From positions 21,825-85,824 of the forward strand of contig CALVBW010000023.1 of the NCBI GenBank assembly GCA_944325945.1: 64,000 nucleotides of DNA. The letters run 5' to 3'. This stretch comes from Candidatus Gastranaerophilales bacterium. Its GTDB lineage: Bacteria > Cyanobacteriota > Vampirovibrionia > Gastranaerophilales > Gastranaerophilaceae. Shown here in pieces: positions 1,733 to 55,246 of this stretch (positions are counted from its first letter, which is position 1; each line of letters begins with the position of its first letter). The position numbers and the translations under genes were made by a program. Under the pieces are notes generated by a model that was given only the letters and a program-made list of their open reading frames with translations, was not told where the DNA came from and searched no databases.

Positions 1733-2809
1733 TTAATCACCTATGCAAACCGCCTGTAGATTGTTATTGTTACGGTAGGTGTAGCTCCAGCTCGTACTGG
1801 TAGAGGAAAAGCCGCGGCGGCCGTACCCGATGCCGCTACCATACTCCTCACCGGACCAAACGAGGAAAGATGAGCCTTGAGAGGCTGTGAAGCCAAGCTC
1901 TGTTACTTTGTCATAGTCAAGTGTTAAATTGCGTGCATCGCCTTTGGCGCCTATGCCTGATGTGTTGTATACATAGTTTGCTATATCTGCTAATTGTGTA
2001 GCTGTTGGCATTTTACTTATACCTCCGCAGGCTTTTATAGCACCTGCCCAGTAATCACTTTTATGATAGCATTCTTTTATTCCAAGGTCACCTTTTAATT
2101 GTTCACATTCCGCCTCTGTAATAGGCTCAGGGAAAAACGGAGCAGTAAAACAAGTATTTCCCATTTTGAACGCACAGTTTCTTCCGTCAAGCGATTTAAC
2201 ATTAATAGAGCGTAAATCTTTTTGCTGAGTATTAGGAGTTTTAAATCCTGTGGTATCGTAAAGAATAGCTAAACAGGAAGTACCTGTAAATTGATTAGTA
2301 AAGGGCTGCTCTTTACACTCGGGATTATATGCAATAATCCCTGTAATACCGTTAGCGAATTGTACGCCGATGAGTTCGGTATCCCAATCATCCTGCCCGA
2401 AGTTGGAGGCATTTTTAATTTCTGTCATGTCGACTTCTTCTCCTTCAGCACCCCAGTAGACTTTGTCTTCAAAACAGGACATAATATCATTATTAGAACA
2501 AACTTTTGTAATTTTAAAGTATTTGCCTAAAGCACCGACAAAGTCAGCAGTAGATCTGTAGCCTGCCAGAACCTGCTGTGTATTCATTTGTTTAAGAGCT
2601 TCTTCTAATTTTCTTTCAAAGACAGACGCGGAAGTATTCCAGGTTTTGTTCTGATAATTCGCAATCAAAGTCGGAATAGTCATAGCGGCCACAACGCCTA
2701 TTATGCCGAGGGTGATAAGCACCTCAGCGAGGGTAAACGCGGCTTTTTTAGAAGATACTAAGTTACTAAGGCAGTAAGGCACTAAGAATTTACTGTGAGT
2801 TTCGCTCAC
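1733..2809 (-). CDS. Prepilin-type (type IV pilin-like/pseudopilin) protein, paralog A, with a DUF1566/FISUMP-like C-terminal domain
   Basis: N-terminus (GTG)SETHSKFLVPYCLSNLVSSKKAA-FTLAEVLITLGIIGVVAAMTIPTL is a class III signal (cleavage/methylation motif, Glu at +5, hydrophobic helix). The true start is uncertain; see the upstream ATG/G11 finding. Confidence 0.8.
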   Translation of the reverse strand: MSETHSKFLVPYCLSNLVSSKKAAFTLAEVLITLGIIGVVAAMTIPTLIANYQNKTWNTSASVFERKLEEALKQMNTQQVLAGYRSTADFVGALGKYFKITKVCSNNDIMSCFEDKVYWGAEGEEVDMTEIKNASNFGQDDWDTELIGVQFANGITGIIAYNPECKEQPFTNQFTGTSCLAILYDTTGFKTPNTQQKDLRSINVKSLDGRNCAFKMGNTCFTAPFFPEPITEAECEQLKGDLGIKECYHKSDYWAGAIKACGGISKMPTATQLADIANYVYNTSGIGAKGDARNLTLDYDKVTELGFTASQGSSFLVWSGEEYGSGIGYGRRGFSSTSTSWSYTYRNNNNLQAVCIGD

Positions 2810-2815
2810 ATATTT

Positions 2816-2877
2816 GTCATTCCGAACTAGTTTCGGAATCTCTTTATTATGAGATGCTGAAACTGGTTCAGCATGAC
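2816..2877. repeat. Two palindromic repeat units in opposite orientation (2816-2842 GTCATTCCGAACTAGTTTCGGAATCTC; 2851-2877 GAGATGCTGAAACTGGTTCAGCATGAC)
   Basis: Read directly. They lie inside the stop-free leader of gene A. Confidence 0.8.
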
Positions 2878-2894
2878 CGGAGGTTAAGCTACTG

Positions 2895-2905
2895 CCCCCC
2901 CCCCC
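2895..2905 (-). repeat. Homopolymer tract: C11 on the plus strand, G11 on the coding strand of gene A
   Basis: Counted from the sequence (actgCCCCCCCCCCCtgagt). It lies 12 codons after an SD-ATG (ATG 2940-2942). Confidence 0.9.
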
Positions 2906-2975
2906 TGAGTGAAAAGTAGTCGTGATGCGTATTTGCGCCCATTTTTTAAACCTCCAAATATCCTGTTACTGTTTT

Positions 2976-4188: not shown

Positions 4189-6660
4189 ATGAAAATATAC
4201 TTTAACCCCGCAATTAAATCATACGTAAATAACAGGCAGCAAAATAAACATGAGGATAATAAGAATTTAAAAGAGAGTTATTCATATAATCCTGTTGCGT
4301 ACAGAGACTATAATATATCTTTTGGTGCAAGATTATTCAGGTCTCCTGAAAATTTTTACGAACAGGATTTTAACAAAGAAGGTATGCCGAAAACTTTGCA
4401 CCGGTATATTTACAACCCCGACAATTACAGCTTCAGAAAAACAATACCTCCGGCTCAGGCAATGAAAGAGGTTTTTGGCTCTATTTCAGGCATGCAGACA
4501 CTGGAAGAAGTGAAAGCGGCATTCCCTGACGAACCGTTATTTGCTGATTTGCATTCAAAATCATCAAGAAAAGCAAGAACAGGTCTGCTGGGCGAATTGG
4601 CACTCGTTCGTGAGGATGAGTTCTATGCCGGTAAATCTTTGTTTAAAAACGGTAAAGATGATCTTGGAATGTATATTTTGAAAAAGATATATGTTGAAGG
4701 TAAAACTTTAAAAGAAATAAATAAAGATTTCCAAAGGGATAAAAGTGTTGTTTACAATGGTTTGAGCGATATTCAATATACGGATGTTAAAGCGTTCGGT
4801 ATTAAGTTCCCTAAACGGGATTTTTGGAAGTCTTTTATTGCAACGCGTGAAGATTTTCCGTATGTTTATATCCCCAGAACAACAGAAGTAAGTAAATCTT
4901 CTGCACCGTCACATATTCATCGTGAAAATCCGGTAAAATATACTCCTAAAAAACGCTTTGAAGATTTGAAAGATTGGGAAATCGACAAAATTACCGATGC
5001 AATGCTGGAAGGTATGGGGGATAGAAAAGAAACTGAAAGACTTTTGAAAAAACGTAATTTACAAGATACTGAATCCCTGAATTTCGTTGCTAAATATATG
5101 GGTGAAATAAATTCTGTTGTGTTGGAAAAATTACATGTCTCAGAAGAAATGAAAGAATTTTTTGACAACTATGACAATTTAACTAAAACTCAGAAACAGA
5201 AATTCAAAGATTATTGGAAATCTCCTGAAACAAGAGAATTACGTTCACTTGTAATGTCGTCTACAATCAGATTTTTCTTTGATGTTTATGGTGTTGACGG
5301 CAACAATGAAGAATTTCAGGAGCTTTTGGAATATGCCCGCGGTATAAAAGCCAAAAGAGAAGCTCAGGAGCTTGAACATAATCGTATTCAAGCTGAGTAT
5401 GATGAAATGTTTAAAGAGCTTGATATGGCAGAACAAAATGAATTACCTAAAGAAGATATCAAAGAAGCACCGCAAATGACTTTTGATCAGCATCTTGAAA
5501 AAGAAGCAAAAAAATACAACGGTAAAGTATATACTTTTGTTGTTAAAGATGGTGTAAAAATTTCTATTGTGGCTAATCTTGCAGAATTAATGGCTCAAAA
5601 ATTCGCAAGTGAATATAGATTTTTACCAAATGCTTATGCAAAACAGTATACCAAGTTTGTATTAAATCATCATAAGGTTAATGACGATTATATGCTGTCT
5701 TTGTTATATAAAGTTGATAATTTGTTAGATCATGGCGATCTTTTATCCAATAAGCAATTATCTGATGATCCCGAAGAAAATAAAAAGTTAAATATGAATT
5801 ATGCCGAACAGATAAAAGAACAGCTTATGCCTGAAGAAAAAGTTAATTCTATAACTCAAGAAGTTTACAAAGATTTTGTGAAAAATAATAAAAAAACTTA
5901 TGATATAGCTACACAAACAATGATGGAGCTTGTTGTAAGGCTTATGAATTCTGAAGATAAAAGTGGTGATATTTCAGACGATATACAAAAGTTGTTGTCA
6001 GGCGATGAAGATGTAAATATAAAAATATCAGATATCTTAGATGTTGATTTTGTGGATATGTTACATAAAAACACATTAAGGAAAAGTAAACTTTTGAGAA
6101 GACATGATATCGCGTTTTTAAACCCTGAACAAATTTCTACAACGCTAAAGATGGCAGGATTTACTGATTTGTCTGTTGAAGATAAAAAATTTGTTGAAGA
6201 TACAATGGCAAAATATCAACAACCTTTGAATAATAAAGAGATAAGAAAGATAACCTACAAAATTATAGATAACCTGGTTAATTATCACACTGAAAAATCT
6301 GTTATACTGCAAGAACCTTATACGTTTTTATATAAAGCCGTTCAAAAAAATATAGAAAAGTATCCTGAAATCAAATCTTACCTTGTACAAACTTTGCAGA
6401 GATCATATGTACTGCCCCAAAATACTACTTTGCGGTATTTTATAGATGATAAAGCTGATAAGAATTTGTTAGAGGCTAAAACTGAAAGATTTATTATCGA
6501 ATTGATAACTAATGAGCCCGAAGTGGTTAGTCTGATGGCGTCAATAGATATGGAAAATATGGAAAAATATATTAAACCTTTTGATTACAATCTTTTTAGA
6601 AAAATGTGCGAATACAGACTTGTTGCATCACAATATTTTGCAAAAGCATCTAAAAAATAG
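4189..6660 (+). CDS. Large K/E-rich hypothetical protein (823 aa) with an N/Q-rich N-terminus and ISFGA motif
   Basis: ORF track; SD-like AAAGGAAG upstream of the ATG. No recognisable domain and no signal peptide. Confidence 0.7.
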   Translation: MKIYFNPAIKSYVNNRQQNKHEDNKNLKESYSYNPVAYRDYNISFGARLFRSPENFYEQDFNKEGMPKTLHRYIYNPDNYSFRKTIPPAQAMKEVFGSISGMQTLEEVKAAFPDEPLFADLHSKSSRKARTGLLGELALVREDEFYAGKSLFKNGKDDLGMYILKKIYVEGKTLKEINKDFQRDKSVVYNGLSDIQYTDVKAFGIKFPKRDFWKSFIATREDFPYVYIPRTTEVSKSSAPSHIHRENPVKYTPKKRFEDLKDWEIDKITDAMLEGMGDRKETERLLKKRNLQDTESLNFVAKYMGEINSVVLEKLHVSEEMKEFFDNYDNLTKTQKQKFKDYWKSPETRELRSLVMSSTIRFFFDVYGVDGNNEEFQELLEYARGIKAKREAQELEHNRIQAEYDEMFKELDMAEQNELPKEDIKEAPQMTFDQHLEKEAKKYNGKVYTFVVKDGVKISIVANLAELMAQKFASEYRFLPNAYAKQYTKFVLNHHKVNDDYMLSLLYKVDNLLDHGDLLSNKQLSDDPEENKKLNMNYAEQIKEQLMPEEKVNSITQEVYKDFVKNNKKTYDIATQTMMELVVRLMNSEDKSGDISDDIQKLLSGDEDVNIKISDILDVDFVDMLHKNTLRKSKLLRRHDIAFLNPEQISTTLKMAGFTDLSVEDKKFVEDTMAKYQQPLNNKEIRKITYKIIDNLVNYHTEKSVILQEPYTFLYKAVQKNIEKYPEIKSYLVQTLQRSYVLPQNTTLRYFIDDKADKNLLEAKTERFIIELITNEPEVVSLMASIDMENMEKYIKPFDYNLFRKMCEYRLVASQYFAKASKK

Positions 6661-9024: not shown

Positions 9025-9825
9025 TTATAGCCACGGATAGTCATCCGGTATTTTCCAGCCGCTTTTTTTGATAACACTGCCGCAACCTCTGTATAAAGTA
9101 GTATTTGAATTATTTTCATTATAGCAGTCAGATTTATTGTTGTTTAATGTGGCGGACTCATTATAGAATAAAAATTTTCCGTCTTTCGCGCTTAAAATCA
9201 TCCAAAAAATATCTTTACCGAAACAATTAGGGGACGAAAAACCATTTAAATCAACATCAAAAGATATATTAGTATAATCAAAATACTTACATGACCCATC
9301 ATCATTATATTCCTTACAAGAGGAATTATCTAACAACATACGGATTATTACATTATTAGAAAGCAAAAAAATTCTGCCTTCAAGATTTCGAGATTCAACC
9401 GCGCCATTTGGGTAGGAAGTAGTAATTCCCACCTCCCTGTAAGAAGTATACCCGAAATCTTTTTGGATTTTTAAATTTGGAGCAAGGTAATTATCAAAAA
9501 CATTATTAACGAAATCCTCTTTGTTAAAACTTGTATCATCAGTGTGAATTCCGCTTGCGGCTTTAGACATCCAGGTAGAAGGGTCGCCATGTTCAACCTG
9601 AGCCATTTGTAACGCCTGCGATAAAATTGAATATGTTTGTTTTAGTTTAACTTCAAACTGCTTTTTCTGATAATTGCTAACCAACGTCGGGATCGTCATA
9701 GCAGCCACAACTCCGATTATGCCGAGGGTTATCAAGACTTCAGCGAGGGTGAAGGCGGGTTTTTTAGAAGATACTAAGTTACTAAGGCAGTAAGGCACTA
9801 AGAATTTACTGTGAACTTCGCTCAC
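9025..9825 (-). CDS. Prepilin-type protein, paralog B
   Basis: Conserved (GTG)SEVHSKFLVPYCLSNLVSSKKPA-FTLAEVLITLGIIGVVAAMTIPTL; pilin-like DVDLNGFSSPNCFGKDIFWM; C-terminal GWKIPDDYPWL. The ORF track extends to TTG 9870. AGGA lies 7 nt before GTG 9823-9825. With a C10 tract, the ATG at 9923 would be in frame. Confidence 0.8.
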   Translation of the reverse strand: MSEVHSKFLVPYCLSNLVSSKKPAFTLAEVLITLGIIGVVAAMTIPTLVSNYQKKQFEVKLKQTYSILSQALQMAQVEHGDPSTWMSKAASGIHTDDTSFNKEDFVNNVFDNYLAPNLKIQKDFGYTSYREVGITTSYPNGAVESRNLEGRIFLLSNNVIIRMLLDNSSCKEYNDDGSCKYFDYTNISFDVDLNGFSSPNCFGKDIFWMILSAKDGKFLFYNESATLNNNKSDCYNENNSNTTLYRGCGSVIKKSGWKIPDDYPWL

Positions 9826-9874
9826 TAATTTTCCTATACCTGAGACGCTAAAACAGTTACCCCAAGCCAATTTC

Positions 9875-9883
9875 GGGGGGGGG
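9875..9883 (-). repeat. Homopolymer tract: G9 on plus, C9 on the coding strand of gene B
   Basis: Counted from the sequence (tttcGGGGGGGGGcgact). It lies 13 codons after the SD-ATG at 9921-9923. Confidence 0.9.
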
Positions 9884-9945
9884 CGACTATCTGAACCGCT
9901 TTTTGCACAACCTTTTTCAACATATCAACTCTCCTTTTTTCTTTT

Positions 9946-9974
9946 ATTAAATATTATTTTGCATATTTTGTCAA
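9946..9974 (-). promoter_or_regulatory. Putative sigma70-type promoter of pilin locus B (TTGACA-17 nt-TTTAAT)
   Basis: Minus strand has TTGACA (9969-9974), a 17-nt spacer and TTTAAT (9946-9951), then AAGGAGAG and ATG. Confidence 0.5.
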
Positions 9975-15085: not shown

Positions 15086-15135
15086 AAGTTCATTACAGGA
15101 GAAAAAATATGGGAAATAAAGAGTTTAAAAATCTC

Positions 15136-15144
15136 GGGGGGGGG
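15136..15144 (+). repeat. Homopolymer tract G9 on the coding strand of gene C
   Basis: Counted from the sequence (atctcGGGGGGGGGcgact). It lies 9 codons after ATG 15109-15111. Confidence 0.9.
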
Positions 15145-15196
15145 CGACTCCTCTAAGTAGGCAGGGCAAGGGTTCTGGCGATATACGTTGGAAAAA

Positions 15197-15236
15197 GATA
15201 CTAAGATACTATGGCACTAAGATAGTAAGAGGTAAC
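15197..15236. repeat. Tandem 8-bp array GATACTAA GATACTAT GGCACTAA GATAGTAA GAGGTAAC, an inverted counterpart of the pilin-leader array at 15566-15600
   Basis: Read directly. The reverse complement contains TCTTAGTGCC and CTTAGTATCTT, matching the conserved leader. Confidence 0.7.
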
Positions 15237-15536
15237 AGTCGGATTAGTAAATCCGACTTACAATATGTCATCCTGAACTGCCTGAGGCAGGACAACACAC
15301 TGAACATTGGTGGGACTTACCATGTCATCCTGAACTTGTTTCAGGATCTCAAAAGATGCACCCCCGCCCCCAGAATTTCAAACACTCGCAAGCTTATGTT
15401 GAAATTCAACCCCCGCCCTCAAGGGGTGAGGGTAAGCCCCTTGAGCGAAGCTCACAGAAAACACACACCTCACTTTACTCACCTCACTCACTCTAGTCAC
15501 GTTAAACAAGAGACCCTGAAACGAGTTCTGGGTGAC
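15237..15536. repeat. Mosaic of short palindromic repeats inside the stop-free leader of gene C
   Basis: AGTCGGATT-agta-AATCCGACT (15237-15258), GTCATCCTGAACTGCCTGAGGCAGGAC (15267-15293), GTCATCCTGAACTTGTTTCAGGATCTC (15324-15350), CCCTCA-agggg-TGAGGG (15416-15432), GAGACCCTGAAACGAGTTCTGGGTGAC (15510-15536). Confidence 0.8.
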
Positions 15537-15542
15537 AAAGAT

Positions 15543-16310
15543 GTGTGCGAAGCTCACAGTAAATTCTTAGTGCCTTACTGCCTTAGTAACTTAGTATCTT
15601 CTAAAAAGACCGCGTTTACCCTTGCGGAGGTTTTAATAACCCTCGGCATAATCGGAATTGTAGCAGCAATGACAATTCCGACGCTTATATCAAATTATCA
15701 GAAAAAAATTACTGTTTCAAAATTGCAAAAAGCACATTCAACACTTAGTAATATGACTAAGCTTTTGTATGCTGACGGTGTATACAATGCTTTTTCGGGA
15801 ACTGTATCTTCTGAGAGAACCGAACAATTTTTTAATTCATATGTTTTACCGTATTTTAAATCTCCCGTTGTATACAAGGACCGTGTTTGTCCGTATACGG
15901 GCACCACAGAGGACTGTTTTCCTTTTAAATATCCTAATAATGATGTCGTAAATTCTAATGTTAAGACTATTTGGAATTACGGACGTATATATTTTACAAC
16001 ATCTGATAAGACTTCTTATTTTATAAATATAATGAAGTATATTGACCCGGACAACCCCGAGGACGGTCGTGAGTATAGAACTTCTCCCGAAGTTTGGGTT
16101 GATTTGAACGGAGCAGACGGACCAAATACTATGGGAAAAGATATTTTTTATTTCAAAACGGATTTTTCTAAAGGTCTTGTTATGAGTTACTGTGCCTCCA
16201 ACAGTTATGAGTATATAAACAGGGACTGTTCCAAAGATGGATATGGCTTTTGCTGCGCGGCAAAAATAATGCTCGACGGCTGGAAAATAAAAGACGATTA
16301 CCCGTGGTAA
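15543..16310 (+). CDS. Prepilin-type protein, paralog C
   Basis: (GTG)CEAHSKFLVPYCLSNLVSSKKTA-FTLAEVLITLGIIGIVAAMTIPTL; WVDLNGADGPNTMGKDIFYF; C-terminal GWKIKDDYPW. The ORF track opens at TTG 15336, and the frame is open back to 15144. Confidence 0.8.
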   Translation: MCEAHSKFLVPYCLSNLVSSKKTAFTLAEVLITLGIIGIVAAMTIPTLISNYQKKITVSKLQKAHSTLSNMTKLLYADGVYNAFSGTVSSERTEQFFNSYVLPYFKSPVVYKDRVCPYTGTTEDCFPFKYPNNDVVNSNVKTIWNYGRIYFTTSDKTSYFINIMKYIDPDNPEDGREYRTSPEVWVDLNGADGPNTMGKDIFYFKTDFSKGLVMSYCASNSYEYINRDCSKDGYGFCCAAKIMLDGWKIKDDYPW

Positions 16311-19071: not shown

Positions 19072-19137
19072 GTCACCCTGAACTTGTTTCAGGGTCTCCT
19101 TATTGATTTTTAGATTCTGAAACGAGTTCAGAATAAC
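19072..19137. repeat. Two palindromic repeat units (19072-19098 GTCACCCTGAACTTGTTTCAGGGTCTC; 19112-19137 AGATTCTGAAACGAGTTCAGAATAAC)
   Basis: Read directly. The second unit overlaps the last codons of the substrate-binding protein gene. Confidence 0.8.
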
Positions 19138-20986
19138 ATTTTTCAGGCGATTCACAAATATATATCTCCTCTATATTATACGTGACCCCGCCGAGTGATG
19201 TCGGAAATATATTTTTGAATTTATTCCGGATTGCGACAATTACGGTCGGTGAATAGATGTAGATAAAAGGTTTTTCATCATAGACAATTTCCTGGTACTC
19301 GTCGTAATATTTTTTTCTATCTTCAAATTTTGTTGCGAGTGCGCCTTTTATAAACATTTCGTCAATCTTTTTTTCAAAATCGTAGCGCGGAGAATTTTTG
19401 TCTTTTTCAAGCCTCATGTTATATACATGTAAAGTTCCGTCGGACATCATAACGTTTTTCCCGCCGTTAGGCTCAAGCGGCGACCCCGTAAATCCCATTA
19501 TAACCATATCCCAATCGAGAGTGTTTACGAGCTTATTGACAAGAGAATTGAATTCAATCGGTTTAAAATTAACTTTCATTCCAAGATCTTCCAAATCCTG
19601 TTTAATCATAACCCCGATGGCTTCGCGCTCTGTGTTTCCTGCATTGGTAAGCATGTCAAATTCTACGCGGTTATTGAATTTGTCGTATAATTTTCCCTGT
19701 TTGTCCCAATAAAAACCGGACTTTTTCAAAAGTTCACGGGATTTGTTCAAATCTTTGTCATAGGGTTTGAGATTTGTATTTAAGAAAATCGAATTAAGAC
19801 TTTCCGCCGTGAAAAGAGGTTCTCCTATTCCGTTTGCAATATTTAAAACTATGTTTTTGCGGTCAACTGCATAGTCAACAGCTTTTCTGAAATTTACATC
19901 GTTAAACCACGCCTGCTTTTTCGGCGGAACGTAGAATTTGCCGTCGTTATTTTTGCGGTTGTTCAGGTTCATTGCAAGATAAATTGTGCCTGTGTTCGGC
20001 CCGAGATTATGGATTGTAAAATCGGAATGCGGTTCCATTGCTTTGTAGCGTGCAACTTTTGACCCTTGAAGATTAATCGTGTCAAGCTCTTTTGCCTCAA
20101 ATTTTAATACTTCGTTATTCAAATCCCCCACAATCAAATAAACCAGTCTGTCCAGATAAGGAAGTTTGTCCCCGTTTTTGTTTATAATGTAATAATTGGG
20201 GTTCCGTTCATAGACAACGCGCTGTGCCGGAACGTATTCTTTAAGTTTAAATGCGCCGGATATTACTAAATCCTTAGGCTTTGTATTTGTGGATAAAAAG
20301 GTTTCAAAGTATTGCGCGCCTTTTTTTACGGCGGGTTCAAAAATATGTTTGGGTGCAATGGGTGAAGAAAGCATTCTTATAAACGGTGCAAAGGGTTCGG
20401 GTGTTACAAATTTGACGGTGTAATCGTCGATTTTGTGTACGGTCGGAAGCTTGCCGTCGATTACGATGGAATCCCTGATTGAGGTATTTCCGAGCCCGGC
20501 AAGAATTATGTCACGCCATGTAAAAACAACGTCGTCTGCGGTAATCGGTTTGCCGTCAGACCATTTTATGCCGTGTCTTAAATTGATTGTGTATTCTTTT
20601 CCGTCCTCTGAGATTGAAAATGATTTTGCAAGTTTAGGTATTGGCTGACCTGTTACGGGGTGTGTTGTCAAAAGTCCGTCGTACATAATTTCAGACATGG
20701 CACTTGAAATATTGTCTTTTGAATTAAACGGATTAAATGTTTTTGGACCTTCGCCTATTGTGGATGCAGTAAAAGTTCCGCCGAATTTTCCTATAGGCGC
20801 CTGTGACTCAAGATAATCTACTTCCTTAATCGTAACTGTTTTTCTGTCCTCTGGGAATATGATTTCCTGCTCGCTGGTTGTGACTGCTTTTTCTGTATTT
20901 GTGTCGGGGACATCGCGCCTTATGCAGGCTTTTAAAAGCCCTAAAATCAACATAAGAATTAAGATAACATACATAACCCGTTTCAT
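19100..20986 (-). CDS. ABC transporter substrate-binding protein, family 5 (peptide/nickel)
   Basis: 628 aa with an N-terminal signal/lipobox-like LLKAC. Family-5 SBP-like sequence along its length. Forms an operon with the two permeases. Confidence 0.8.
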   Translation of the reverse strand: MKRVMYVILILMLILGLLKACIRRDVPDTNTEKAVTTSEQEIIFPEDRKTVTIKEVDYLESQAPIGKFGGTFTASTIGEGPKTFNPFNSKDNISSAMSEIMYDGLLTTHPVTGQPIPKLAKSFSISEDGKEYTINLRHGIKWSDGKPITADDVVFTWRDIILAGLGNTSIRDSIVIDGKLPTVHKIDDYTVKFVTPEPFAPFIRMLSSPIAPKHIFEPAVKKGAQYFETFLSTNTKPKDLVISGAFKLKEYVPAQRVVYERNPNYYIINKNGDKLPYLDRLVYLIVGDLNNEVLKFEAKELDTINLQGSKVARYKAMEPHSDFTIHNLGPNTGTIYLAMNLNNRKNNDGKFYVPPKKQAWFNDVNFRKAVDYAVDRKNIVLNIANGIGEPLFTAESLNSIFLNTNLKPYDKDLNKSRELLKKSGFYWDKQGKLYDKFNNRVEFDMLTNAGNTEREAIGVMIKQDLEDLGMKVNFKPIEFNSLVNKLVNTLDWDMVIMGFTGSPLEPNGGKNVMMSDGTLHVYNMRLEKDKNSPRYDFEKKIDEMFIKGALATKFEDRKKYYDEYQEIVYDEKPFIYIYSPTVIVAIRNKFKNIFPTSLGGVTYNIEEIYICESPEKCYSELVSESKNQ

Positions 20987-21198: not shown

Positions 21199-21972
21199 TT
21201 AATTTTTATATTCCTCATCAAGTTCATAAGGTTCGTAATGAAGTTTTCCGTCTTTCATAAATGTATAACTTGTATTATATAGGGAAGTTGAATCAGGATA
21301 AATACCTAAATCAAAAGTGTCTGCTCCCAGCTGGTTGGGACCGGCAGGACCATTAACATCTATAATAATCTGACCGCATCGAGGTGTGGTATAATAAATT
21401 ATTTCTTGTTCACCTGTTTCTTCATTGATTATAGGATTCCCCGCTTCATCTTTTTTTATCGCTGTGTATGTATAGTTACAATTACCTTGATAATTAAACC
21501 TTTGTACCATTATTCTCATGCCATTTTTTAATACGGCAGTTGGGGCGTAATACATGGTCTTACCATAGGTTACACCATTGTTATATTTTTTTTGCTCAAA
21601 TTTTATAGTCTCAGGCCAACAACTTTTATCGCCTGTATTACAAATTTTGGTTACTGATAAATTTTGAGTTAATAATTCCAATATTTCTAAATGAGATAAG
21701 TTTAAGCTGAATATATCACGATAACTGCTAAAACCATTCTGTGCCATTGTTATTTGTACGGCATTTTGTATTATTGAATACCCCGTTTTTGCCTGATTTA
21801 CAAGCTCTTTTTCTTTATAATTGGCAACAAGAGTTGGTATCGTCATAGCCGCCACAACGCCGATTATGCCGAGGGTTATCAAGACTTCAGCGAGTGTGAA
21901 GGCGGTTTTTTTAGAAGATACTAAGTTACTAAGGCAGTAAGGCACTAAGAATTTACTGTGAGCTTCGCTCAC
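21199..21972 (-). CDS. Prepilin-type protein, paralog D
   Basis: (GTG)SEAHSKFLVPYCLSNLVSSKKTA-FTLAEVLITLGIIGVVAAMTIPTL; IIDVNGPAGPNQLGADTFDL. The ORF track extends to TTG 22017. With a C10 tract, the ATG at 22070 would be in frame. Confidence 0.8.
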   Translation of the reverse strand: MSEAHSKFLVPYCLSNLVSSKKTAFTLAEVLITLGIIGVVAAMTIPTLVANYKEKELVNQAKTGYSIIQNAVQITMAQNGFSSYRDIFSLNLSHLEILELLTQNLSVTKICNTGDKSCWPETIKFEQKKYNNGVTYGKTMYYAPTAVLKNGMRIMVQRFNYQGNCNYTYTAIKKDEAGNPIINEETGEQEIIYYTTPRCGQIIIDVNGPAGPNQLGADTFDLGIYPDSTSLYNTSYTFMKDGKLHYEPYELDEEYKN

Positions 21973-22021
21973 TAATTTTCCTATACCTGAGACGCTAAAA
22001 CAGTTACCCCAAGTCAATTTC

Positions 22022-22030
22022 GGGGGGGGG
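22022..22030 (-). repeat. Homopolymer tract: G9 on plus, C9 on the coding strand of gene D
   Basis: Counted from the sequence (atttcGGGGGGGGGcgact). Confidence 0.9.
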
Positions 22031-22092
22031 CGACTATCTGAACCGCTTTTTGCACAACCTTTTTCAACATATCAATTCTCCTTTTTTCTTTT

Positions 22093-22121
22093 ATTAAATA
22101 TTATTTTGCATATTCTGTCAA
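22093..22121 (-). promoter_or_regulatory. Putative sigma70-type promoter of pilin locus D (TTGACA-17 nt-TTTAAT)
   Basis: Same sequence as locus B. It is divergent from the groES upstream region. Confidence 0.5.
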
Positions 22122-22191
22122 GTTTTTTTGAATAATTAATTTTTCCTTAACTTTTTTAAAAAATTGTGAATTCTGTATTATAAATATATTA

Positions 22192-22218
22192 GAGATTCTG
22201 AAATAAGTTCAGAATGAC
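22192..22218. repeat. Palindromic repeat unit GAGATTCTGAAATAAGTTCAGAATGAC in the groES 5' region
   Basis: Read directly. Same family as 19112-19137. Confidence 0.8.
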
Positions 22219-22248
22219 AAATTGGTTAGTAAAAAAGGAGAGATAAAT

Positions 22249-22533
22249 ATGATTAAACCGTTAGGCGACAGAATTGTAATTAAGGTTATTGAAGACACTG
22301 AACAAACATCAGGCGGAATTTTTATCCCCGACAGCGCAAAAGAAAAACCTCAAAAAGGTGAAATCGTTGCGGTTGGTTTGGGCAAAATGAACGACAAAGG
22401 CGAAAGAGAACCTATGGATGTTAAAGTCGGCGATGTTGTTCTTTACGCTAAATACGCAGGTACGGATATTAAAATGGACGGCGTTGAATACAAAATTCTG
22501 TCAGTTAAAGATGCTTTGGCGGTAATTGAATAA
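22249..22533 (+). CDS. groES: Co-chaperonin GroES
   Basis: ORF trimmed to [43 protein letters not shown], which follows AAGGAGAG. Confidence 0.95.
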
Positions 22534-22593: not shown

Positions 22594-24237
<1,644 letters not shown>

Positions 24238-32928: not shown

Positions 32929-34932
32929 ATGTCAGTAAAATCAGTACAGTTAGCAAGCGTAGATTCAAAGCGTAATTATAATAATCAAAAACAAAATAAC
33001 GCCGTTTCATTCGGTAATGCAGGAAATCCTGTAATTACATTGATGGATGCAATAGACAGAGGCGGTTTTGCGGCTTCATTTATCATGCAGGATTTTCTTG
33101 GCATGGCAGGTCCCCGTGTATTAACAGGCATGTTCCGTAATCATGATAAAACCGGACAGTTAAATTGGGATTTTGCAAAGAAGGAAGGTATTCGTGAAAT
33201 TTTAAGCGGTCCCAGTGCATTTATTATACCTGCGTTTTTGATGGCGGGTATTAAAAGACTTTCAGGCAGCGCCAATAATGTTCCTATAGATTTTATTAAC
33301 GGATTAGGCGAAACTTTTAACGATTACGCTAAATCAAATATTAATACATTAAGTGATGCTGCTGTAACAAAACACGGTTTTTATAAAAATGTGTTTAAAA
33401 ATATGTTATCCGCGTCGACAAATGAAGTTTTGCAGGGTGAAGAACTTGAACAAACCGCTAAAACATTCGCGGATAAATTGATTGCAGCTGAAAAAGCTCC
33501 GAAAAAAGGTTTCTGGAAACATTTAACAGGGAAAAAGGTTGAAGGTTCAGCGCAAGATTTGCAGCATGAACTTCTGGAAGAATTTGTAAAACTCCGTAAA
33601 CAATATCTTGGCGCGGATAGTGACAAGGTCGTTGCCGAATATGTTGGTAAAGACGGTAAAAAAATTGCTTCATCATTTAAATCTATTCTCGGGCATATGA
33701 ATGATTATGCAAATGATGCAATTAAGCATGTAAATAAAAAATTCAAAGATGTTAAAACTCTTACGCCTGAAAATGTTGAAAAATTTGTAAAAACATTGAG
33801 CCAGAGACGTTCAGGCACAAGATTTTTATCAAATATCAGTATGTGGCTTGCTGTTGTAGGGTTTTATACAATTATTCCTAAGCTGTATAACCACGTAACA
33901 AAAGGAAGAGACCCGGGATTGGACGGTCTTGATATTCAGGATCAAAATGTAAATAAAACAGCAAATCCTACATTCTCCAAAGACTCAAAAGAAGAAAATA
34001 AGGATGAAAAAACAGAAAAAACTGATAATAGTGTAAAAGCTGAACCTTCATTTACAGGTTTGTCAGGTGTAATGGCAAAAGTTGGCAGAACTGTTAGTGA
34101 GACCGGCGGATTTAAAAAATTGTCGGATGCGTTTGAATTTGACGGTGCAACAATGTCAATGCCTGCGATGTTGACTCTGTTGTTCGGTTTTTGTCTGCCG
34201 CCAAGGTTGAAACATGCTCAAAGCAATACAGACAGAAAAGAAATTTTGTTTAGAGATTTTACAAGTTTCTTATCAATTCTGTTCGGTGCTAAAATTCTTA
34301 CACGTGTATTCTCGGATATATTTGCAAAGGCATCAGGTCTTGCTTTGAATACCAAACCTCATAATAGCGGCGATTCAATTTTCAAAAAAATCTGGCACTA
34401 TGTTTATCCTTCAGGAGGGGTGCAGGTTCTTGACGATACAAGAATTAAAGCAAATTACAGCAATGTAGCATCATACAAAGACGGTATAAATGATATGTTC
34501 AGGTTCGTTGATAAAAACGGCGGTAATGTCGGTAAAATGCTTAACATAGATAAAGATATTAAAGCAGCCGCTACGGAAATTCTCGGTAAAGCTCCGGACA
34601 AATCAATGAAACTTGCTGATATCATTAAAGCATTTGATAAATCAAAAGATTCGGAAGCTTACAAAAATATACTTAAAAAGCTTGCTGATGAAGGCAATAT
34701 GCTTGTAAAACGCGCCAAAACTTACAATAGTTTGTTCGGTTTTGTGTCAACGATATTCCTTGTACCGGGTCTGATGGTATGGATTTCAAGACATTGTGAA
34801 AAAATGACAAAAGAACGTATTGCAGAACAAAAAGAACAATCTATGCAGAATATGGCAAAACAAACTCAGGTGCCTGATTCTATGAGAGTTGTGACAAATA
34901 AACCGACTATGGCAGGTTTTTTAAATAAATAA
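32929..34932 (+). CDS. Large hypothetical membrane protein (667 aa) with an N/Q-rich N-terminus and VSFGN motif
   Basis: Several hydrophobic segments. The N-terminal module (LGMAGPRVL...AKKEGIREIL) resembles the tandem paralogs at 29896-31154. Confidence 0.7.
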   Translation: MSVKSVQLASVDSKRNYNNQKQNNAVSFGNAGNPVITLMDAIDRGGFAASFIMQDFLGMAGPRVLTGMFRNHDKTGQLNWDFAKKEGIREILSGPSAFIIPAFLMAGIKRLSGSANNVPIDFINGLGETFNDYAKSNINTLSDAAVTKHGFYKNVFKNMLSASTNEVLQGEELEQTAKTFADKLIAAEKAPKKGFWKHLTGKKVEGSAQDLQHELLEEFVKLRKQYLGADSDKVVAEYVGKDGKKIASSFKSILGHMNDYANDAIKHVNKKFKDVKTLTPENVEKFVKTLSQRRSGTRFLSNISMWLAVVGFYTIIPKLYNHVTKGRDPGLDGLDIQDQNVNKTANPTFSKDSKEENKDEKTEKTDNSVKAEPSFTGLSGVMAKVGRTVSETGGFKKLSDAFEFDGATMSMPAMLTLLFGFCLPPRLKHAQSNTDRKEILFRDFTSFLSILFGAKILTRVFSDIFAKASGLALNTKPHNSGDSIFKKIWHYVYPSGGVQVLDDTRIKANYSNVASYKDGINDMFRFVDKNGGNVGKMLNIDKDIKAAATEILGKAPDKSMKLADIIKAFDKSKDSEAYKNILKKLADEGNMLVKRAKTYNSLFGFVSTIFLVPGLMVWISRHCEKMTKERIAEQKEQSMQNMAKQTQVPDSMRVVTNKPTMAGFLNK

Positions 34933-37332: not shown

Positions 37333-39228
37333 ATGCACATATTAAATATCAATCAACAGAATGAAAACTTTAGATATGCTCCGTCCTTTGGAAGAACAAG
37401 TAACTTTCATACTATAGAGAAATTTCAGCTAAAGCCTGAAGAAATTGAGAAAATTTCGCAAATGTCTGAAAGTCTTTCAAAAATTTCTGAATTTTTTGCA
37501 TCCTTGAACGGGATTTTGCAAAAAAAATTCAAGTCAAATTATCCGGGTCTGGTTGCCGGCGAAAAAATAAAAGGGTTTTTGTTTGATTCAATTTTGGGAG
37601 GTAATGGTAAAAAACTTCAGATTGTTCGATTAAATACACGACCTGATAGTGAAGAACTTTTGACGTTCGGACTATTAGATTCAAGCAATAAAAATATACT
37701 CCGTTATAAAGTGAATAAAAATGGCGATGTCGTTGTTATGAAAGAAAAATTGAATTCTGAACCCGTAGACACCGGTATTTTTTCTGAATGGAATTTGGAT
37801 ACCTTTATAGAGGAATTGAAATATTTAAATATTTATTCTCAGAATTTTAATGAAGTGAACAGAAAATTAACAGGTACCGAGTCTATAGTTGTTATGCATA
37901 AGCTTTTGGATAAAATTATCGCTGTTAAGAAAAGCGAAGGGATTAAAAATAGCATTGAAAATGTAGTAGAAAGTTTTAACGAGGTCTCCTCCGAATTTAA
38001 TAAGAATTCTTGGCGCGGGGTTGTTGAAATTAAACGGGCATATTTTGGAAAATTTGCACAAGAAAAATCTAAAAGTATGTTTTTTAAAGATCCGGTAAAC
38101 TCAAAGATATATTCATATACTCCGGCAAAAAGTGTCGCCGATAATCGTATTTTCAGGTTAATGGTCTTTGATGAATCCGGCAGGGTTAATGACGGATTTT
38201 TGTTCTTTTCGGACGGTAAAGTGGCAAGAATACTACCGGAAGCTCTTAATTCGGATTTTATCCGCGGTCGTAAGATGGAATATTTGTCAGACGATGAGAT
38301 AAAAAATTTGAATCTTAAAGGTAATTTGTCTGTGGTGGATCAAGGTTTGAAAGATTTTAAAGCTTTTATTGTTGAAAAGCGTTCTTTTAAAAAGAAAAAT
38401 ACAAATGCAGCTAAAGAAAATAGTTTGTCGGGAGCTATCAATAAAATCCCTCAAATAAAACCGCAAGGCGTTAAAAATGTTTCTAAGGAACAAAGAAAAG
38501 TACAGCCTAAAAAACAAATGGCATCTCCAATAATTAAATCAGGAACGCAAAATATCACCGCTAAAAAAACTGTTGCACAGAATAAAAATATTATAGAAAA
38601 GGTTGAATCTCATACAATTAATAACAGCAATAAAACGTCTTTAGTAACACAAAGTGTTTCTCAAACTGTAAATAAAACTGAATTTATAAATACAACGCTT
38701 ACTTCTCTTGCGGAAAAACTTACAAATTTATTTGATACCCCTGTTGAAGAAAGAAGTTCGCATCTCGTTCATGAAAAGCTTCAAAACGGAAGAATTTTTT
38801 CCGGCAGAGTCTCTTTTATTGCATCTGACGGTGCTCAAATTACTGTATCAAGGATTAAATCTCCCAGATATGTCGATTTTATGTACTATTCAATAAAAGT
38901 TTCCGACGGAAAATCTCATTATGTAATGAATTTGGATCCTGAAGCCGGTTTGATTTTGGAAAGCACTCCTGAAGGGAAAGTTATTATTGATAAAAAACAA
39001 CGTGTAAAACATCTTTCTAAAAAGGAATTTATTGAGCTATATCCGCAAGCAATAAATTTGGAGCGTTATTTAAAAGAACTTTTTGAGTTTAAAACCGATG
39101 GCAAAAGAAAGGTTGTAACTTCTAATTTAAAAATGAAAGGGCTTACTTTAAAAGAAAGGGAAAAGGAAGTCCTGAAAGCGCTTGGACAATCTCCGGATAT
39201 TGCACTTGATTCGTTGTTTAAACTTTAG
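37333..39228 (+). CDS. Large K/E/N-rich hypothetical protein (631 aa) with an N/Q-rich N-terminus and PSFGR motif
   Basis: ORF track. No recognisable domain or signal peptide. Confidence 0.7.
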   Translation: MHILNINQQNENFRYAPSFGRTSNFHTIEKFQLKPEEIEKISQMSESLSKISEFFASLNGILQKKFKSNYPGLVAGEKIKGFLFDSILGGNGKKLQIVRLNTRPDSEELLTFGLLDSSNKNILRYKVNKNGDVVVMKEKLNSEPVDTGIFSEWNLDTFIEELKYLNIYSQNFNEVNRKLTGTESIVVMHKLLDKIIAVKKSEGIKNSIENVVESFNEVSSEFNKNSWRGVVEIKRAYFGKFAQEKSKSMFFKDPVNSKIYSYTPAKSVADNRIFRLMVFDESGRVNDGFLFFSDGKVARILPEALNSDFIRGRKMEYLSDDEIKNLNLKGNLSVVDQGLKDFKAFIVEKRSFKKKNTNAAKENSLSGAINKIPQIKPQGVKNVSKEQRKVQPKKQMASPIIKSGTQNITAKKTVAQNKNIIEKVESHTINNSNKTSLVTQSVSQTVNKTEFINTTLTSLAEKLTNLFDTPVEERSSHLVHEKLQNGRIFSGRVSFIASDGAQITVSRIKSPRYVDFMYYSIKVSDGKSHYVMNLDPEAGLILESTPEGKVIIDKKQRVKHLSKKEFIELYPQAINLERYLKELFEFKTDGKRKVVTSNLKMKGLTLKEREKEVLKALGQSPDIALDSLFKL

Positions 39229-51825: not shown

Positions 51826-52863
51826 ATGGAAATATTAATTTTTATAGGGGGATTTGTATTCGGAGCTGTATGTGTATTTATACCTTTTTTTATGGCTCAA
51901 AAAAATACCAGAGCTGATTTTGAAAACCTTGCTAACAGAATTTTTAAAGAAAATTCCGTTGAATTTTCCGCGCAAAATCGCGAACGTCTGGATGAGTTTT
52001 TTAAACTTTTTAAAGAACGAATTGCGGATTTTGAGAAAAGAACCGAAGATAATTTTAAGCAGGAAAAAGAAAATTTTACTATATTTGATTTGAATATTAA
52101 AAATTTTCTTGAAACCGGTAAAAAGATTTCAATGGATGCAAATGCTCTTGTTAATGTTATGAAGTCCGACAACCGCACCTCCGGCAAGTGGGGCGAAATT
52201 GTTCTTGAAAGAGTTCTGGAAGCTTCCGGTTTGAGAAAAGACGAAGAATATAAAATTCAGTCCGGCTCATCTGACGGCAGACCGGATGCAACGGTTTTTC
52301 TGCCTGATAACAGATGTATTTATATTGATTCCAAAACTTCGTTTGCTTCATTTGAAGGTTATGTTAATTCAGATAATGAATACGAAAAAGAAAATTATTT
52401 AAAACAGTTTATTGACTCGACTAAGGCACATATTTCCGGTCTCGCAAAGCGGGATTATTCATCTGATGATCGGTCTCCGGATTATGTCTTGATGTTTATA
52501 CCAATTGAAAGTTGTTATGCAATGCTGTTTTGTGAGGATTGTGCTCTTTGGGATTTCGCGTGGAAAAATAAGGTTATGCCGGTATCTCCGTCAACACTGC
52601 TTGCTGCTTTGAAAATTATTAATTCATTCCATGTCGTTGACAGGCACAATAAAAATGCGCTTGAGGTTACCAGAATATGTTCCAGAATGATTGATAAATT
52701 TTCCGACTTACTCGGTGATTTGACTAAAATTAAAAATGCCTATAATTCTGCCGTTACAAGGCTCACCGGCAAAGACAATATTATTAATCAATTGACCAGA
52801 ATTGAAGAGCTCGGAGTGAAAGGTTCTAAAAGTATACCGGAGATTCCTGAAGAGATTAATTAA
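51826..52863 (+). CDS. rmuC: DNA recombination protein RmuC
   Basis: ORF trimmed to MEILIFIGGF, which follows AAGGAGAG; TGgTATAAT at 51798-51806. Contains GKWGEIVLERVLE...DATVFLPD...IDSK...DYVLMFIPIE. Confidence 0.85.
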   Translation: MEILIFIGGFVFGAVCVFIPFFMAQKNTRADFENLANRIFKENSVEFSAQNRERLDEFFKLFKERIADFEKRTEDNFKQEKENFTIFDLNIKNFLETGKKISMDANALVNVMKSDNRTSGKWGEIVLERVLEASGLRKDEEYKIQSGSSDGRPDATVFLPDNRCIYIDSKTSFASFEGYVNSDNEYEKENYLKQFIDSTKAHISGLAKRDYSSDDRSPDYVLMFIPIESCYAMLFCEDCALWDFAWKNKVMPVSPSTLLAALKIINSFHVVDRHNKNALEVTRICSRMIDKFSDLLGDLTKIKNAYNSAVTRLTGKDNIINQLTRIEELGVKGSKSIPEIPEEIN

Positions 52864-55246
52864 CCGCGGTTAATGATTCTGTTTCCAGGTATTTCTTTTG
52901 CGTACGGTTAAATGTGTTTATTTTGTATATTTTGCCGTCGGTAGTGATTTTTATTGAATTGTTATAATCTGTTCTGTATATTTGTGTATGGCGTAAAATG
53001 TCAAGCGTAATTTTGTTCGGGTGTCCAAAGTTGTTCGGACCTGTTGAGATTACCGATATCGAATTTTTGAGGTAATCTGTCATTGATTTGTTGACTACAT
53101 TTTTGCCGCCATGGTGTCCGACTTTTAGTACCTCAATATTTTGCGGAATATCTTTTTTAATTTTGTCAAATGCAATTACACCGGCGTCGCCCATAAACAA
53201 CATGTCAAAATCTTTGTAGTTCAAAAGCGCTATTATTGAATTTTCATTGTCATTGTCCGGTATATTTGCTGTATAGGTTGTGATTTTTAAATCCGGTTCT
53301 GTGTAAATAACAGCGTTATTCTCAGCGAGATATGTTTTTATTTTATATTTGTCAATGGCATCAAAGATATTGATAACGGTATAGCTGTCCTGTTTGAGTG
53401 AATTGACATATACTGATTTGATGTTTAATGCTTCCATTAAGTCGACGGCGCCGCCTGCGTGGTCGACATCAAAGTGAGTTATAATCATTCCTTCAATATT
53501 TTTTATTCCTCTGTCTTTTAAATATTTTGCAATGACAAATTTTGCAGTGGAGGATGAACTTTTATAGCTCATTTTGGCAGTGTCAATTATAAAATATTTA
53601 TTTTCCGGCGTTTTAATTAAAAACGCATCGGCATTACCGACATCAAATGTTATAATTTCCAGTTTGTGGTTTGGTATATTGATTGTTGTAACAAAAAGTA
53701 TGACTATTGCAGTCAAAATTATTGTGAATAATTTTTTGTCGAAGCCTTTTTCTATTAAAATTGTAACCAGCAGTATTATTCCGTAAAAAATTAGAAGTTG
53801 TATAACCCCAGGGTGTGTTGTATCAATAATTGCATTCGGCAGTGACGCAAAATAATTTGAGATTGCGACAATTATATCAAGTGCGTATTTTAAAATAAAG
53901 TCAAAAATCATACAGACAAAATCAGCAATAGGTTTTATTGTAGCAAGTATTGAACTTACAAAACCGCCGAAACTTATTACACTTAAAAATGGCACTGTAA
54001 GTATATTTGCTAAAATAGAATATGTACTGAAAGTGTTAAAATAAAACATCTGCAACGGCGCCACCCAGATTTGTGCGATAATCGGAATTAGGATTCCGCC
54101 CTTAATCCATTCCGGCAGATTGATATCTTTAAATTTGTCAAATATTACCATCCCTGTTGTCAAAAGCCCGAATGTTACTATGAATGACAACTGGAATCCG
54201 ACATTGTTTATGTATGCAGGATTGTATATAAGCATTAAAAATGCCACAAAAGATAATAATGATACACTGTGAGCATCTCTGTCTATGAGTTTTCCTATCT
54301 GAATAAATAAAAGCATTAATGCGGCACGCAAGACAGATGCACCAAGTCCTGTCATTAATGTATAAAGAATTACCATAACCATTCCGCCGGTTATATTTAT
54401 TTTATAAGGCACCCTTAAAAATCTCATTATGAAAAACCAGAATCCGAAAATAAATGCAACGTTCATACCTGATGCGGCAAGTATATGCAATAATCCTGAA
54501 TTGATAAAATTCGTTTTAATATAATCAGGAGGCGCTACTGCGTCGTCTCCGAATACTACTCCGCCAAGAATTTCCAAATTCGGTGATTGAAGATATTTGG
54601 AATGACTTTCTAAAATTCCGTTTCTTACGTTATTTAATTTCCTTAAAAATTTCCACTGCAGCGAAAGCTCTCCGTTTAATTTATGACAATCAGTATAATC
54701 CGCATAAACTGTTGTAAATGCATTGAAATTTTGCAGATATCTTCCATAATCAAATTGTGACGGATTACCGGCTTTGAACGGACGTCTGATTTTTGCATTG
54801 ATTGAAACATAATCTCCTGTGTTTAAAGTTGGTGTTTCTGACTCGCTGTATAATGTCACATAAGTTTTGGCTTTGATTTCTTGCCCGTTAATTTTGTTTA
54901 CTGCAAGAAAAAATTTCGTCTTATCATCAGTTATGTTCGGAATGGAAACAATTTGTCCTTGAATTTCGGCATCAATTGGTGCTATATCATATAATTGGTC
55001 GCTTGTATTTATTCTGAAATACGAATTAAAAAAGCCGAAATAAAATATTGTTATCCAAAAAATTACATATTTTATCGACAATCTTTTTTGAAAAATTAAA
55101 ATTATTCCGATTATCGTTAATGCCGCGGAAACTATAATTGCACAGTCGTTAAAATATGACAGTATTCCTGCCATAAACATTACAGATGTTATAAACATTA
55201 CGGCATTTTTGCTTTGTAATGTTGAATTTAGGTATTCTCTAAACAT
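52856..55246 (-). CDS. comEC: DNA internalization competence protein ComEC/Rec2 with a C-terminal metallo-beta-lactamase domain
   Basis: Polytopic competence domain (LLHILAASGMNVAF) and MBL motif (THFDVDHAGG). Confidence 0.9.
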   Translation of the reverse strand: MFREYLNSTLQSKNAVMFITSVMFMAGILSYFNDCAIIVSAALTIIGIILIFQKRLSIKYVIFWITIFYFGFFNSYFRINTSDQLYDIAPIDAEIQGQIVSIPNITDDKTKFFLAVNKINGQEIKAKTYVTLYSESETPTLNTGDYVSINAKIRRPFKAGNPSQFDYGRYLQNFNAFTTVYADYTDCHKLNGELSLQWKFLRKLNNVRNGILESHSKYLQSPNLEILGGVVFGDDAVAPPDYIKTNFINSGLLHILAASGMNVAFIFGFWFFIMRFLRVPYKINITGGMVMVILYTLMTGLGASVLRAALMLLFIQIGKLIDRDAHSVSLLSFVAFLMLIYNPAYINNVGFQLSFIVTFGLLTTGMVIFDKFKDINLPEWIKGGILIPIIAQIWVAPLQMFYFNTFSTYSILANILTVPFLSVISFGGFVSSILATIKPIADFVCMIFDFILKYALDIIVAISNYFASLPNAIIDTTHPGVIQLLIFYGIILLVTILIEKGFDKKLFTIILTAIVILFVTTINIPNHKLEIITFDVGNADAFLIKTPENKYFIIDTAKMSYKSSSSTAKFVIAKYLKDRGIKNIEGMIITHFDVDHAGGAVDLMEALNIKSVYVNSLKQDSYTVINIFDAIDKYKIKTYLAENNAVIYTEPDLKITTYTANIPDNDNENSIIALLNYKDFDMLFMGDAGVIAFDKIKKDIPQNIEVLKVGHHGGKNVVNKSMTDYLKNSISVISTGPNNFGHPNKITLDILRHTQIYRTDYNNSIKITTDGKIYKINTFNRTQKKYLETESLTAVN

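Follow-up and report, generated by a model that had tools for sequence, protein, structure and literature searches.

A poly-C tract in the leader of a pilin-like gene as a probable translational phase switch in a Candidatus Gastranaerophilales gut bacterium

Homopolymeric contingency loci are textbook knowledge in Neisseria, Campylobacter and Haemophilus, and in gut commensals the main known examples of phase variation are the invertible promoters of Bacteroides. In Campylobacter and Helicobacter, long G/C runs together with a depletion of intermediate ones are found in genomes that each carry several independently switching loci. The Bordetella fimbrial subunit genes fim2 and fim3 are controlled by a poly-C tract, as is proposed here for a pilin-like gene; that tract is located between the -35 and -10 elements and alters transcription. 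The Neisseria pilC tract was reportedly placed by Jonsson et al. in 1991 in the part of the gene that encodes the signal peptide, so that the residues encoded by the tract are removed from the mature protein, as would also happen at the locus described below. The threshold in use for phase variability in Neisseria is a G/C run of at least 9 nt, 9 being also the modal poly-G length there (PMC5953494). Canonical prepilin leaders are short and hydrophilic, with a length of 6–26 aa and a near-invariant Gly at position -1 (PMC4471445), and a termite Gastranaerophilus genome has been reported to contain pilA, pilB, pilC, pilD and pilT (PMC5877343). A search of a literature library yielded no publication on homopolymer switches, or on prepilin leaders of such length, in Melainabacteria.

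A 64-kb stretch of DNA from an uncultured Candidatus Gastranaerophilales bacterium, henceforth referred to as the window, was analysed. The groES-adjacent gene, referred to as locus D, is probably a slipped-strand translational phase switch situated in a prepilin leader, OFF with nine C's (C9) and ON with ten (C10). Relatives in which the same cassette has ten C's and an intact gene were identified, and the locus is therefore best explained as an ordinary homopolymer on/off switch in a new lineage.

Four poly-G/C tracts and the anatomy of locus D

The window has a G+C content of 36% and contains only four G/C runs of at least 6 nt (11, 9, 9 and 9 nt; Table 1). An earlier note on this DNA had described these tracts as the only G/C homopolymers of 9 nt or longer, and the run census confirmed this even with the threshold lowered to 6 nt. 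The run-length histogram comprises 483 runs of 3 nt, 97 of 4 nt, 12 of 5 nt, none of 6–8 nt and four of at least 9 nt, where a first-order model predicts about 6 runs of 6–8 nt and about 0.05 runs of at least 9 nt. Only four FTLAEV prepilin motifs occur in the window, and one tract lies 122–471 nt 5' of each. Four long runs upstream of the only four prepilin motifs, against about 0.05 expected, indicate that the tracts are not random.

The four loci have a common layout. In each, a GGAG-type Shine-Dalgarno (SD) sequence, as also carried by groES and groEL of the window, and an ATG are located 9–13 codons 5' of the tract, and no stop interrupts the pilin frame between tract and pilin (at locus C over a spacer of 470 nt after G9). 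As the earlier note had it, all four tracts are out of frame with the SD-preceded ATG, and a length of 10 brings all four into frame. The G/C homopolymer threshold of PhasomeIt (at least 9 nt; PMC5953494) is reached by C9 at locus D, the sister tracts measuring 9, 9 and 11 nt.

All switch features of locus D are read on the minus strand. The two promoter-like hexamers with their 17-nt spacing, the ATG and the C9 tract were recovered exactly where they had previously been described, and the divergent arrangement with groES was likewise verified; Cpn10 neighbours every locus D ortholog. Promoter function of the hexamers is suggested by a TATAAT found at the same -10 position in two related contigs (L016 and L017), with TTTAAC in a third (L015). 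The pair was not reported by a consensus promoter scan because its -10 hexamer is without A at position 2. The tract lies 38 nt past the ATG, with 13 codons between them, and the FTLAEV motif begins about 121–122 nt 3' of it. Since the locus D tract is 3' of the ATG, as it is in all four window loci, the promoter-spacer mechanism of the Bordetella fim genes is inapplicable.

Table 1 Features of locus D, its sister loci and other elements of the window.
Feature	Position	Strand	Remarks
G/C runs	C11 2895–2905; G9 9875–9883; G9 15136–15144; G9 22022–22030		As written on the window
-35-like hexamer TTGACA	22116–22121	-	Putative promoter element
-10-like hexamer TTTAAT	22093–22098	-	Putative promoter element; 17-nt spacer from -35
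Shine-Dalgarno GGAGA	22077–22081	-	6 nt 5' of ATG
Leader ORF start ATG	22068–22070	-	Preceded by SD
Poly-C tract C9, proposed switch	22022–22030	-	G9 on plus strand
TGA stop	22014–22016	-	Closes the 18-codon OFF-state peptide MLKKVVQKAVQIVAPPRN
Hairpin GTGAGC-GAA-GCTCAC	21958–21972	-	First three bases (21970–21972) are the in-frame GTG
54-nt leader block	21908–21961 (-); 2745–2798 (-); 9761–9814 (-); 15554–15607 (+)		100% identical in 4/4 paralogs
Imperfect 8-nt tandem array (CTTAGTNN) x ~4	21915–21949	-	Within the 54-nt block
FTLAEV, mature pilin-like N-terminus	21883–21900	-
Pilin-frame ORF	21199–22017	-	Open back to tract
groES	22250–22533	+	Divergent from locus D; groEL next at 22597–24237
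Sister locus A	1733–2942	-	ATG 2940–2942; coding-strand G11 2895–2905; in frame at G10
Sister locus B	9025–9923	-	Same cassette as D; C9 9875–9883; other globular domain
Sister locus C	15109–16310	+	ATG 15109; G9 15136–15144; in frame at G10
Inverted repeat of locus C	15195–15239/15556–15600		45 nt; 78% complementary; encloses a 316-nt spacer
Palindromic leader-type repeats	15240–15560; 2810–2880; 22183–22215; 19100–19160		Also in many homolog leaders
ComEC-type competence channel protein	52856–55246	-	Competence, DUF4131 and metallo-beta-lactamase domains
Large ORFs, 578–823 aa	24286–26022 (-); 37333–39228 (+); 4189–6660 (+); 32929–34932 (+)		No significant Pfam match

With nine C's, the ATG frame of locus D closes at the TGA listed in Table 1. 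The earlier note had given TAG 21981–21983 (minus strand) as the stop, but this is only the second stop of that frame; at locus B the TAG does come first, TGG standing where locus D has TGA. The further claim that C10 joins the ATG frame to the pilin held true, in that one added C yields a 290-aa ORF (22070–21199, minus strand) beginning with MLKKVVQKAVQIVAPPPKLTWGNCFSVSGIGKLVSEAHSKFLVPYCLSNLVSSKKTA and continuing directly into FTLAEV. Gene callers instead start the locus D protein at the in-frame GTG (P0001, 257 aa), which is located 50 nt past the tract and preceded, at loci B and D, by AGGA 6 nt upstream.

An Rfam search of positions 21700–22400 returned no known RNA family at E values up to 1. 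A terminator-like hairpin (CCCCGAAATTGACTTGGGG) with a T-rich tail was considered as a length-dependent element and rejected, since only 4 C's of the tract take part in it, and two hits of this kind where 0.7 would be expected are weak.

Loci B and D share a 263-nt cassette whose first base is that of the -35 hexamer (21860–22121 and 9713–9974), and its 97.7% identity bears out the previously described likeness of the two loci. The cassette extends to about codon 27 of the mature protein, and the globular domains are dissimilar past residue 56. Since the cassette is shared while the globular domains differ, it is a portable 5' module placed on different pilin bodies.

The encoded protein resembles a type IV pilin at its N-terminus. 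The motif FTLAEVLITLGIIGVVAAMTIP (from 21900, minus strand) scored 21.3 bits against PF07963 (cutoff 21.2) and 18.9 against TIGR02532 (cutoff 16.3), and both Glu5 and a hydrophobic alpha1N segment are present. The AF2 model of the mature part (pLDDT 93) shows a pilin-like arrangement of a 53-residue N-terminal helix (residues 3–55) and a beta domain; a Foldseek search of this model against the PDB gave no match with E below 0.1 for the globular domain. Prepilin-peptidase cleavage is predicted between Ala (21901–21903) and Phe (21898–21900) on the minus strand. Counted from the ATG, the locus D leader measures 57 aa; initiation at the GTG would shorten it to 24 aa. Leaders across the family range from 55 to ~240 aa. 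Position -1 is Ala at locus D and in 96 of 118 homologs. The short leader and Gly at -1 of class III signal peptides are thus not seen at locus D, and a leader of at least 55 aa with Ala at -1, as a departure from canonical prepilins, counts against a switch in a prepilin leader. More than 7,700 homologs of the fused protein are present in the protein collection, almost all unnamed and some carrying DUF6613. PilB, PilC and PilD gave no match among ten large window ORFs scanned, one of which is ComEC.

Translation of the long leader

Evidence that the leader is translated was obtained from 14 loci in the window and related MAGs. Their tract-to-pilin spacers of 115–533 nt contain no stop in the pilin frame over ~1,300 codons, compared with ~139 and ~116 stops in the two other frames. 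Because no stop interrupts this frame in any of the 14 loci, the ATG upstream of the tract is, on this coding evidence, most probably the real start of these genes. Contigs L016 and L017 carry the same cassette with a different leader, in which neither ATG nor GTG occurs in frame before the pilin motif; their sole in-frame start there is a TTG directly 3' of the tract and without an SD, which leaves the upstream ATG as the only reasonable choice. Initiation at this ATG places the tract within the coding sequence, and at locus D 1-nt changes in it shift the frame of the full-length gene.

Database annotation agrees in part with such a start. Many homologs are called from an SD-preceded ATG through GGG or PPP into the pilin, and among the best homologs a short peptide that runs into GGG(G) or PPP, corresponding to the translated in-frame tract, opens 31 of the 84 leaders longer than 30 aa. 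In the best 120 of the more than 7,700 homologs, gene-called leaders reach 238 aa, with a median of 72 aa. Where gene callers start at an internal GTG or TTG, the real start and the ON/OFF state are therefore missed in annotation.

The internal GTG is itself a possible tract-independent start. If it were used, pilin with a 24-aa leader would be made from it and the ATG–tract segment would be a regulatory or vestigial short upstream ORF, with the tract modulating expression at most, for example through the point at which the upstream ORF terminates. Besides its choice by gene callers and the AGGA 5' of it at loci B and D, the GTG is present in all four window paralogs, is followed by highly conserved leader sequence and stands 11 nt before an invariant 54-nt block. 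One allele of locus D (L022) retains the ORF although the ATG and tract are lost, and at locus B and in one locus D haplotype the C9-frame TAG lies 8 nt 5' of the GTG, which would allow termination-reinitiation. We nonetheless regard initiation at the GTG as rather unlikely, because it leaves unexplained the stop-free pilin frame that reaches back to the tract in 14 loci over up to 533 nt, and because the same cassette occurs without a GTG in L016, L017 and L019. The GTG also sits in a hairpin stem with an SD of only 4 nt. In the window-type locus D haplotype the upstream ORF ends 42 nt before it, so the coupling geometry is not conserved.

The 54-nt block forms the 3' end of the leader and contains an imperfect 8-nt tandem array (Table 1), a pattern with 16 hits in the window against 0.21 expected. 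The mature-pilin codons adjoining the block differ among the paralogs at synonymous sites. Constraint at the nucleotide level is suggested by these features, and may reflect a regulator site, recombination, gene conversion or RNA pairing. At locus C an inverted copy of the 8-nt array just 3' of G9 gives rise to the inverted repeat listed in Table 1, which could act as an RNA stem or an inversion site. An invertible element was rejected for locus D, which, unlike locus C, has no inverted-repeat partner.

The long leaders are largely made of short palindromic repeat units kept in frame, which translate to, for example, VILNLFQDL, CHPELVSGS, EMLKQVQHD and IPKLVRNDK. Leader-type hairpins were also observed in intergenic DNA and at the end of an SBP gene (...SELVSES). 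In the leaders of P0047, P0120, P0172, P0045 and P0057, one to three tandem pseudo-N-termini of the form AFTLAEGATHVxxxxNIRR, which are repeated partial prepilin cleavage motifs, precede the real AFTLAEVLI. A 27-nt piece of the shared leader gave 13 matches in five MAGs, which carry the label Candidatus Gastranaerophilales or uncultured bacterium and belong to the gut Melainabacteria/Vampirovibrionia; two JGI metagenome DNA scans, with a B/D-specific 25-mer and a general leader 21-mer, gave no match. A protein search with the 41-aa leader alone gave no candidate, a result limited by the word index, since P0029 and P0136 contain this leader.

Tract length and cassette exchange among relatives

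Natural variation in tract length was identified in relatives of the window. A syntenic contig with 99.5% identity over 7 kb (L018) carries the locus B ortholog with C10, compared with C9 in the window, and encodes a predicted fusion protein of 299 aa (P0136, MLKKVVQKAVQIVAPPPKLAWGNCF...); the locus B protein cluster has one 299-aa member. At a third locus, C10 is found in L019 (P0144, 398 aa) and C9 in L016 and L017. For the cassette, at locus B and the third locus, near strains therefore include both ON and OFF lengths, and across near-identical strains C8, C9 and C10 were directly observed. These C10 alleles, together with the open frame, support the earlier proposal of a length-dependent switch that is ON at C10. 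Homologs of the locus A type imply tracts of G7, G10, G12 and G13, with G7 in frame in L012; P0079 and P0024 are among their G10 alleles in the database. Locus B has C10 and locus D has C9, at equal coverage (~18x), in sample BRZ_PS; each locus thus has a state of its own.

Sequencing errors are frequent in homopolymers, and several locus D contigs have a coverage of only 3–7x. That the run is due to chance or to mis-assembly, a concern raised with the original observation, is nevertheless scarcely credible: C9 occurs in 15 independent assemblies, C10 is found in contigs at 18–20x, and the four long runs, against about 0.05 expected, all lie at prepilin genes. Replication of C9 across assemblies effectively refutes an artefact.

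Locus D itself is demonstrably a member of the polymorphic cassette family and is OFF wherever sampled. Its 17 contigs comprise 15 with C9, one with C8 (L026) and one with a deletion (L022); none of the 16 tract-bearing contigs, which derive from different samples and include the window, has the ON length of C10, and no 290-aa member occurs in the locus D protein cluster. All 17 contigs preserve the 257-codon ORF, free of frameshifts and stops and with only 5 polymorphic sites, too few for a measure of selection (dN/dS) at this locus. In L022, a 67-nt deletion between AATTGA direct repeats (contig positions 1400–1500; ~22005–22071 of the window) removes the ATG and the poly-C tract and joins the SD to ...ACTGTTTTAGCG, leaving the pilin ORF intact; pilin could thus be translated independently of the tract.

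Counting all B/D-type cassettes, C9 is present in ~20 of 23, spanning two diverged haplotypes and three chromosomal loci, which is more uniformity than is expected of a freely switching tract. Such uniformity would be consistent with recoding at a fixed C9, in which prepilin is made constitutively at a low level through RNA-polymerase slippage or a -1 frameshift on C CCC CCC and DNA-level C10 alleles are rare over-expressing mutants, not the normal ON state. Homopolymer runs of at least 9 nt suffice for transcriptional slippage, a shift of -1 leads from the ATG frame to the pilin frame, and the tract formally constitutes a correctly phased X XXY YYZ heptamer. Recoding is nonetheless improbable in our judgement. 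Sister cassettes would need opposite corrections (G11 minus 1 at locus A and L006; L007 plus 1 from G11), whole clusters are in frame in the DNA, such as that of P0024 with 6/6 members, and C8 and C10 variants of the tract exist. The downstream structure is no better than that of shuffled sequence (fold z-score -1.2) and no convincing stimulatory structure was found. The fixed length, single shift direction and stimulatory element of programmed frameshifting or slippage were accordingly not found.

Outside the C tract, the 7 kb shared by the window and L018 show no indels other than 1-nt changes in intergenic T8/T7 (~11908) and A7/A8 (~6697) runs. A/T runs of 7–8 nt also vary by 1 nt, and the C-tract indel is therefore not unique; homopolymer indels are the general class of indel between the two sequences. 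The predominance of C9, the GTG after the tract and these A/T-run indels are the reasons why a length-dependent switch at locus D is held to be probable and not placed higher.

In one further contig (L030, 1–2513), an upstream region resembling that of locus B, with 89% identity to the window, continues into the locus D pilin and downstream flank (99.4%), the join falling inside the shared cassette. This contig is probably an assembly chimera, although inter-locus recombination could also produce it, and as its two parts are chimera-like in their identities it was set aside as proof of cassette recombination.

Permanent silence of locus D was also considered, either as a pilin store that recombines through the shared cassette, a model likened to Neisseria pilS, or as a gene being lost. 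The absence of an ON length from all 16 tract-bearing contigs, the additional allele with its switch deleted, the B-to-D join of L030 and the potential of the invariant 54-nt block to act as a recombination site would all fit a silent copy. We consider this very unlikely, however, given the intact 257-codon ORF in 17/17 contigs (with only 5 polymorphic sites), the retention of a promoter-like region, SD and ATG a single step from ON, and the chimeric appearance of L030.

A broader arrangement can be proposed in which promoter, SD-preceded ATG, homopolymer and a giant cleavable leader of in-frame palindromic repeats would form a modular 5' cassette. The tract would be poised at C9, with low expression through RNA-level slippage, and the 54-nt (CTTAGTNN)n block would serve as a recombination or regulator site at which cassettes and pilin bodies are swapped between loci. 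This arrangement is doubtful and is offered tentatively. If true, a gut commensal would combine phase variation with antigenic variation, and prepilin peptidases would be able to process leaders exceeding those described so far about tenfold in length.

The proposed switch and its relation to known systems

The favoured explanation for locus D remains a switch set by tract length. Locus D would be one of at least four paralogous type-IV-pilin-like genes of this Candidatus Gastranaerophilales gut bacterium, with translation proceeding from a strong SD-preceded ATG far 5' of the prepilin cleavage site through the poly-G/C tract and the long leader. The reading frame would be set by the length of the tract: with C9, translation would stop after 18 codons and the gene would be OFF, and with C10 the 290-aa prepilin would be made and the gene would be ON. 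The state would flip by gain or loss of one C through slipped-strand mispairing during replication, both mechanism and rate being presumed. Because the tract lies in a leader that would be removed by prepilin peptidase, changes of 3 nt in its length would leave the mature protein unaltered. We infer from the sequence both that the leader is cleaved and that no pilin is made at C9.

An uncultured relative of the cyanobacteria from animal or human guts thus appears to gate a very large pilin-like surface family by poly-G/C switches. The scale is considerable, with more than 7,700 database homologs and four loci in 64 kb, each apparently switched independently. Strong fluctuating selection on surface filaments is implied, for example by host immunity, phage or variable adhesion. 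If cleaved, leaders of 55–240 aa would widen the known range of prepilin peptidase substrates. The mechanism is ordinary; the lineage and the gene family are new, and the location of the switch in a very long, repeat-built leader that is presumably cleaved is unusual.

A close parallel is offered by Neisseria pilC1 and pilC2, in which, as proposed here, an in-frame G/C homopolymer of about 9 nt or more in a pilus-related gene turns translation ON or OFF by 1-nt changes (PMC5953494). Neisseria PilC is an adhesin associated with pili and has an ordinary signal peptide, whereas the protein described here is prepilin-like, with a class-III-type leader of 55–240 aa. It also belongs to a large paralogous pilin-like family of an uncultured, non-photosynthetic cyanobacterial relative, and its switching is proposed from sequence comparison. 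Canonical type IV prepilins share with it the N-terminal methylation motif, Glu5, the hydrophobic alpha1N segment and the order of an N-terminal helix followed by a beta domain, the last as seen in the AF2 model, but their leaders of 6–26 aa with Gly at -1 (PMC4471445) contrast with the 57 to ~240 aa and mostly Ala at -1 found here.

The poly-G loci of Campylobacter jejuni and Helicobacter resemble the present ones in that an AT-rich genome carries long G/C runs almost only at surface-structure genes, and intermediate runs are depleted in the window as in those organisms (0 of 6–8 nt against ~6 expected). Most of their targets are genes for glycosyltransferases and for the modification of flagella or capsules, whereas those described here are pilin-like structural subunits. 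Unlike the Campylobacter and Helicobacter loci, those of the present family follow one common design of SD-preceded ATG, ~9–13 codons, tract and long leader.
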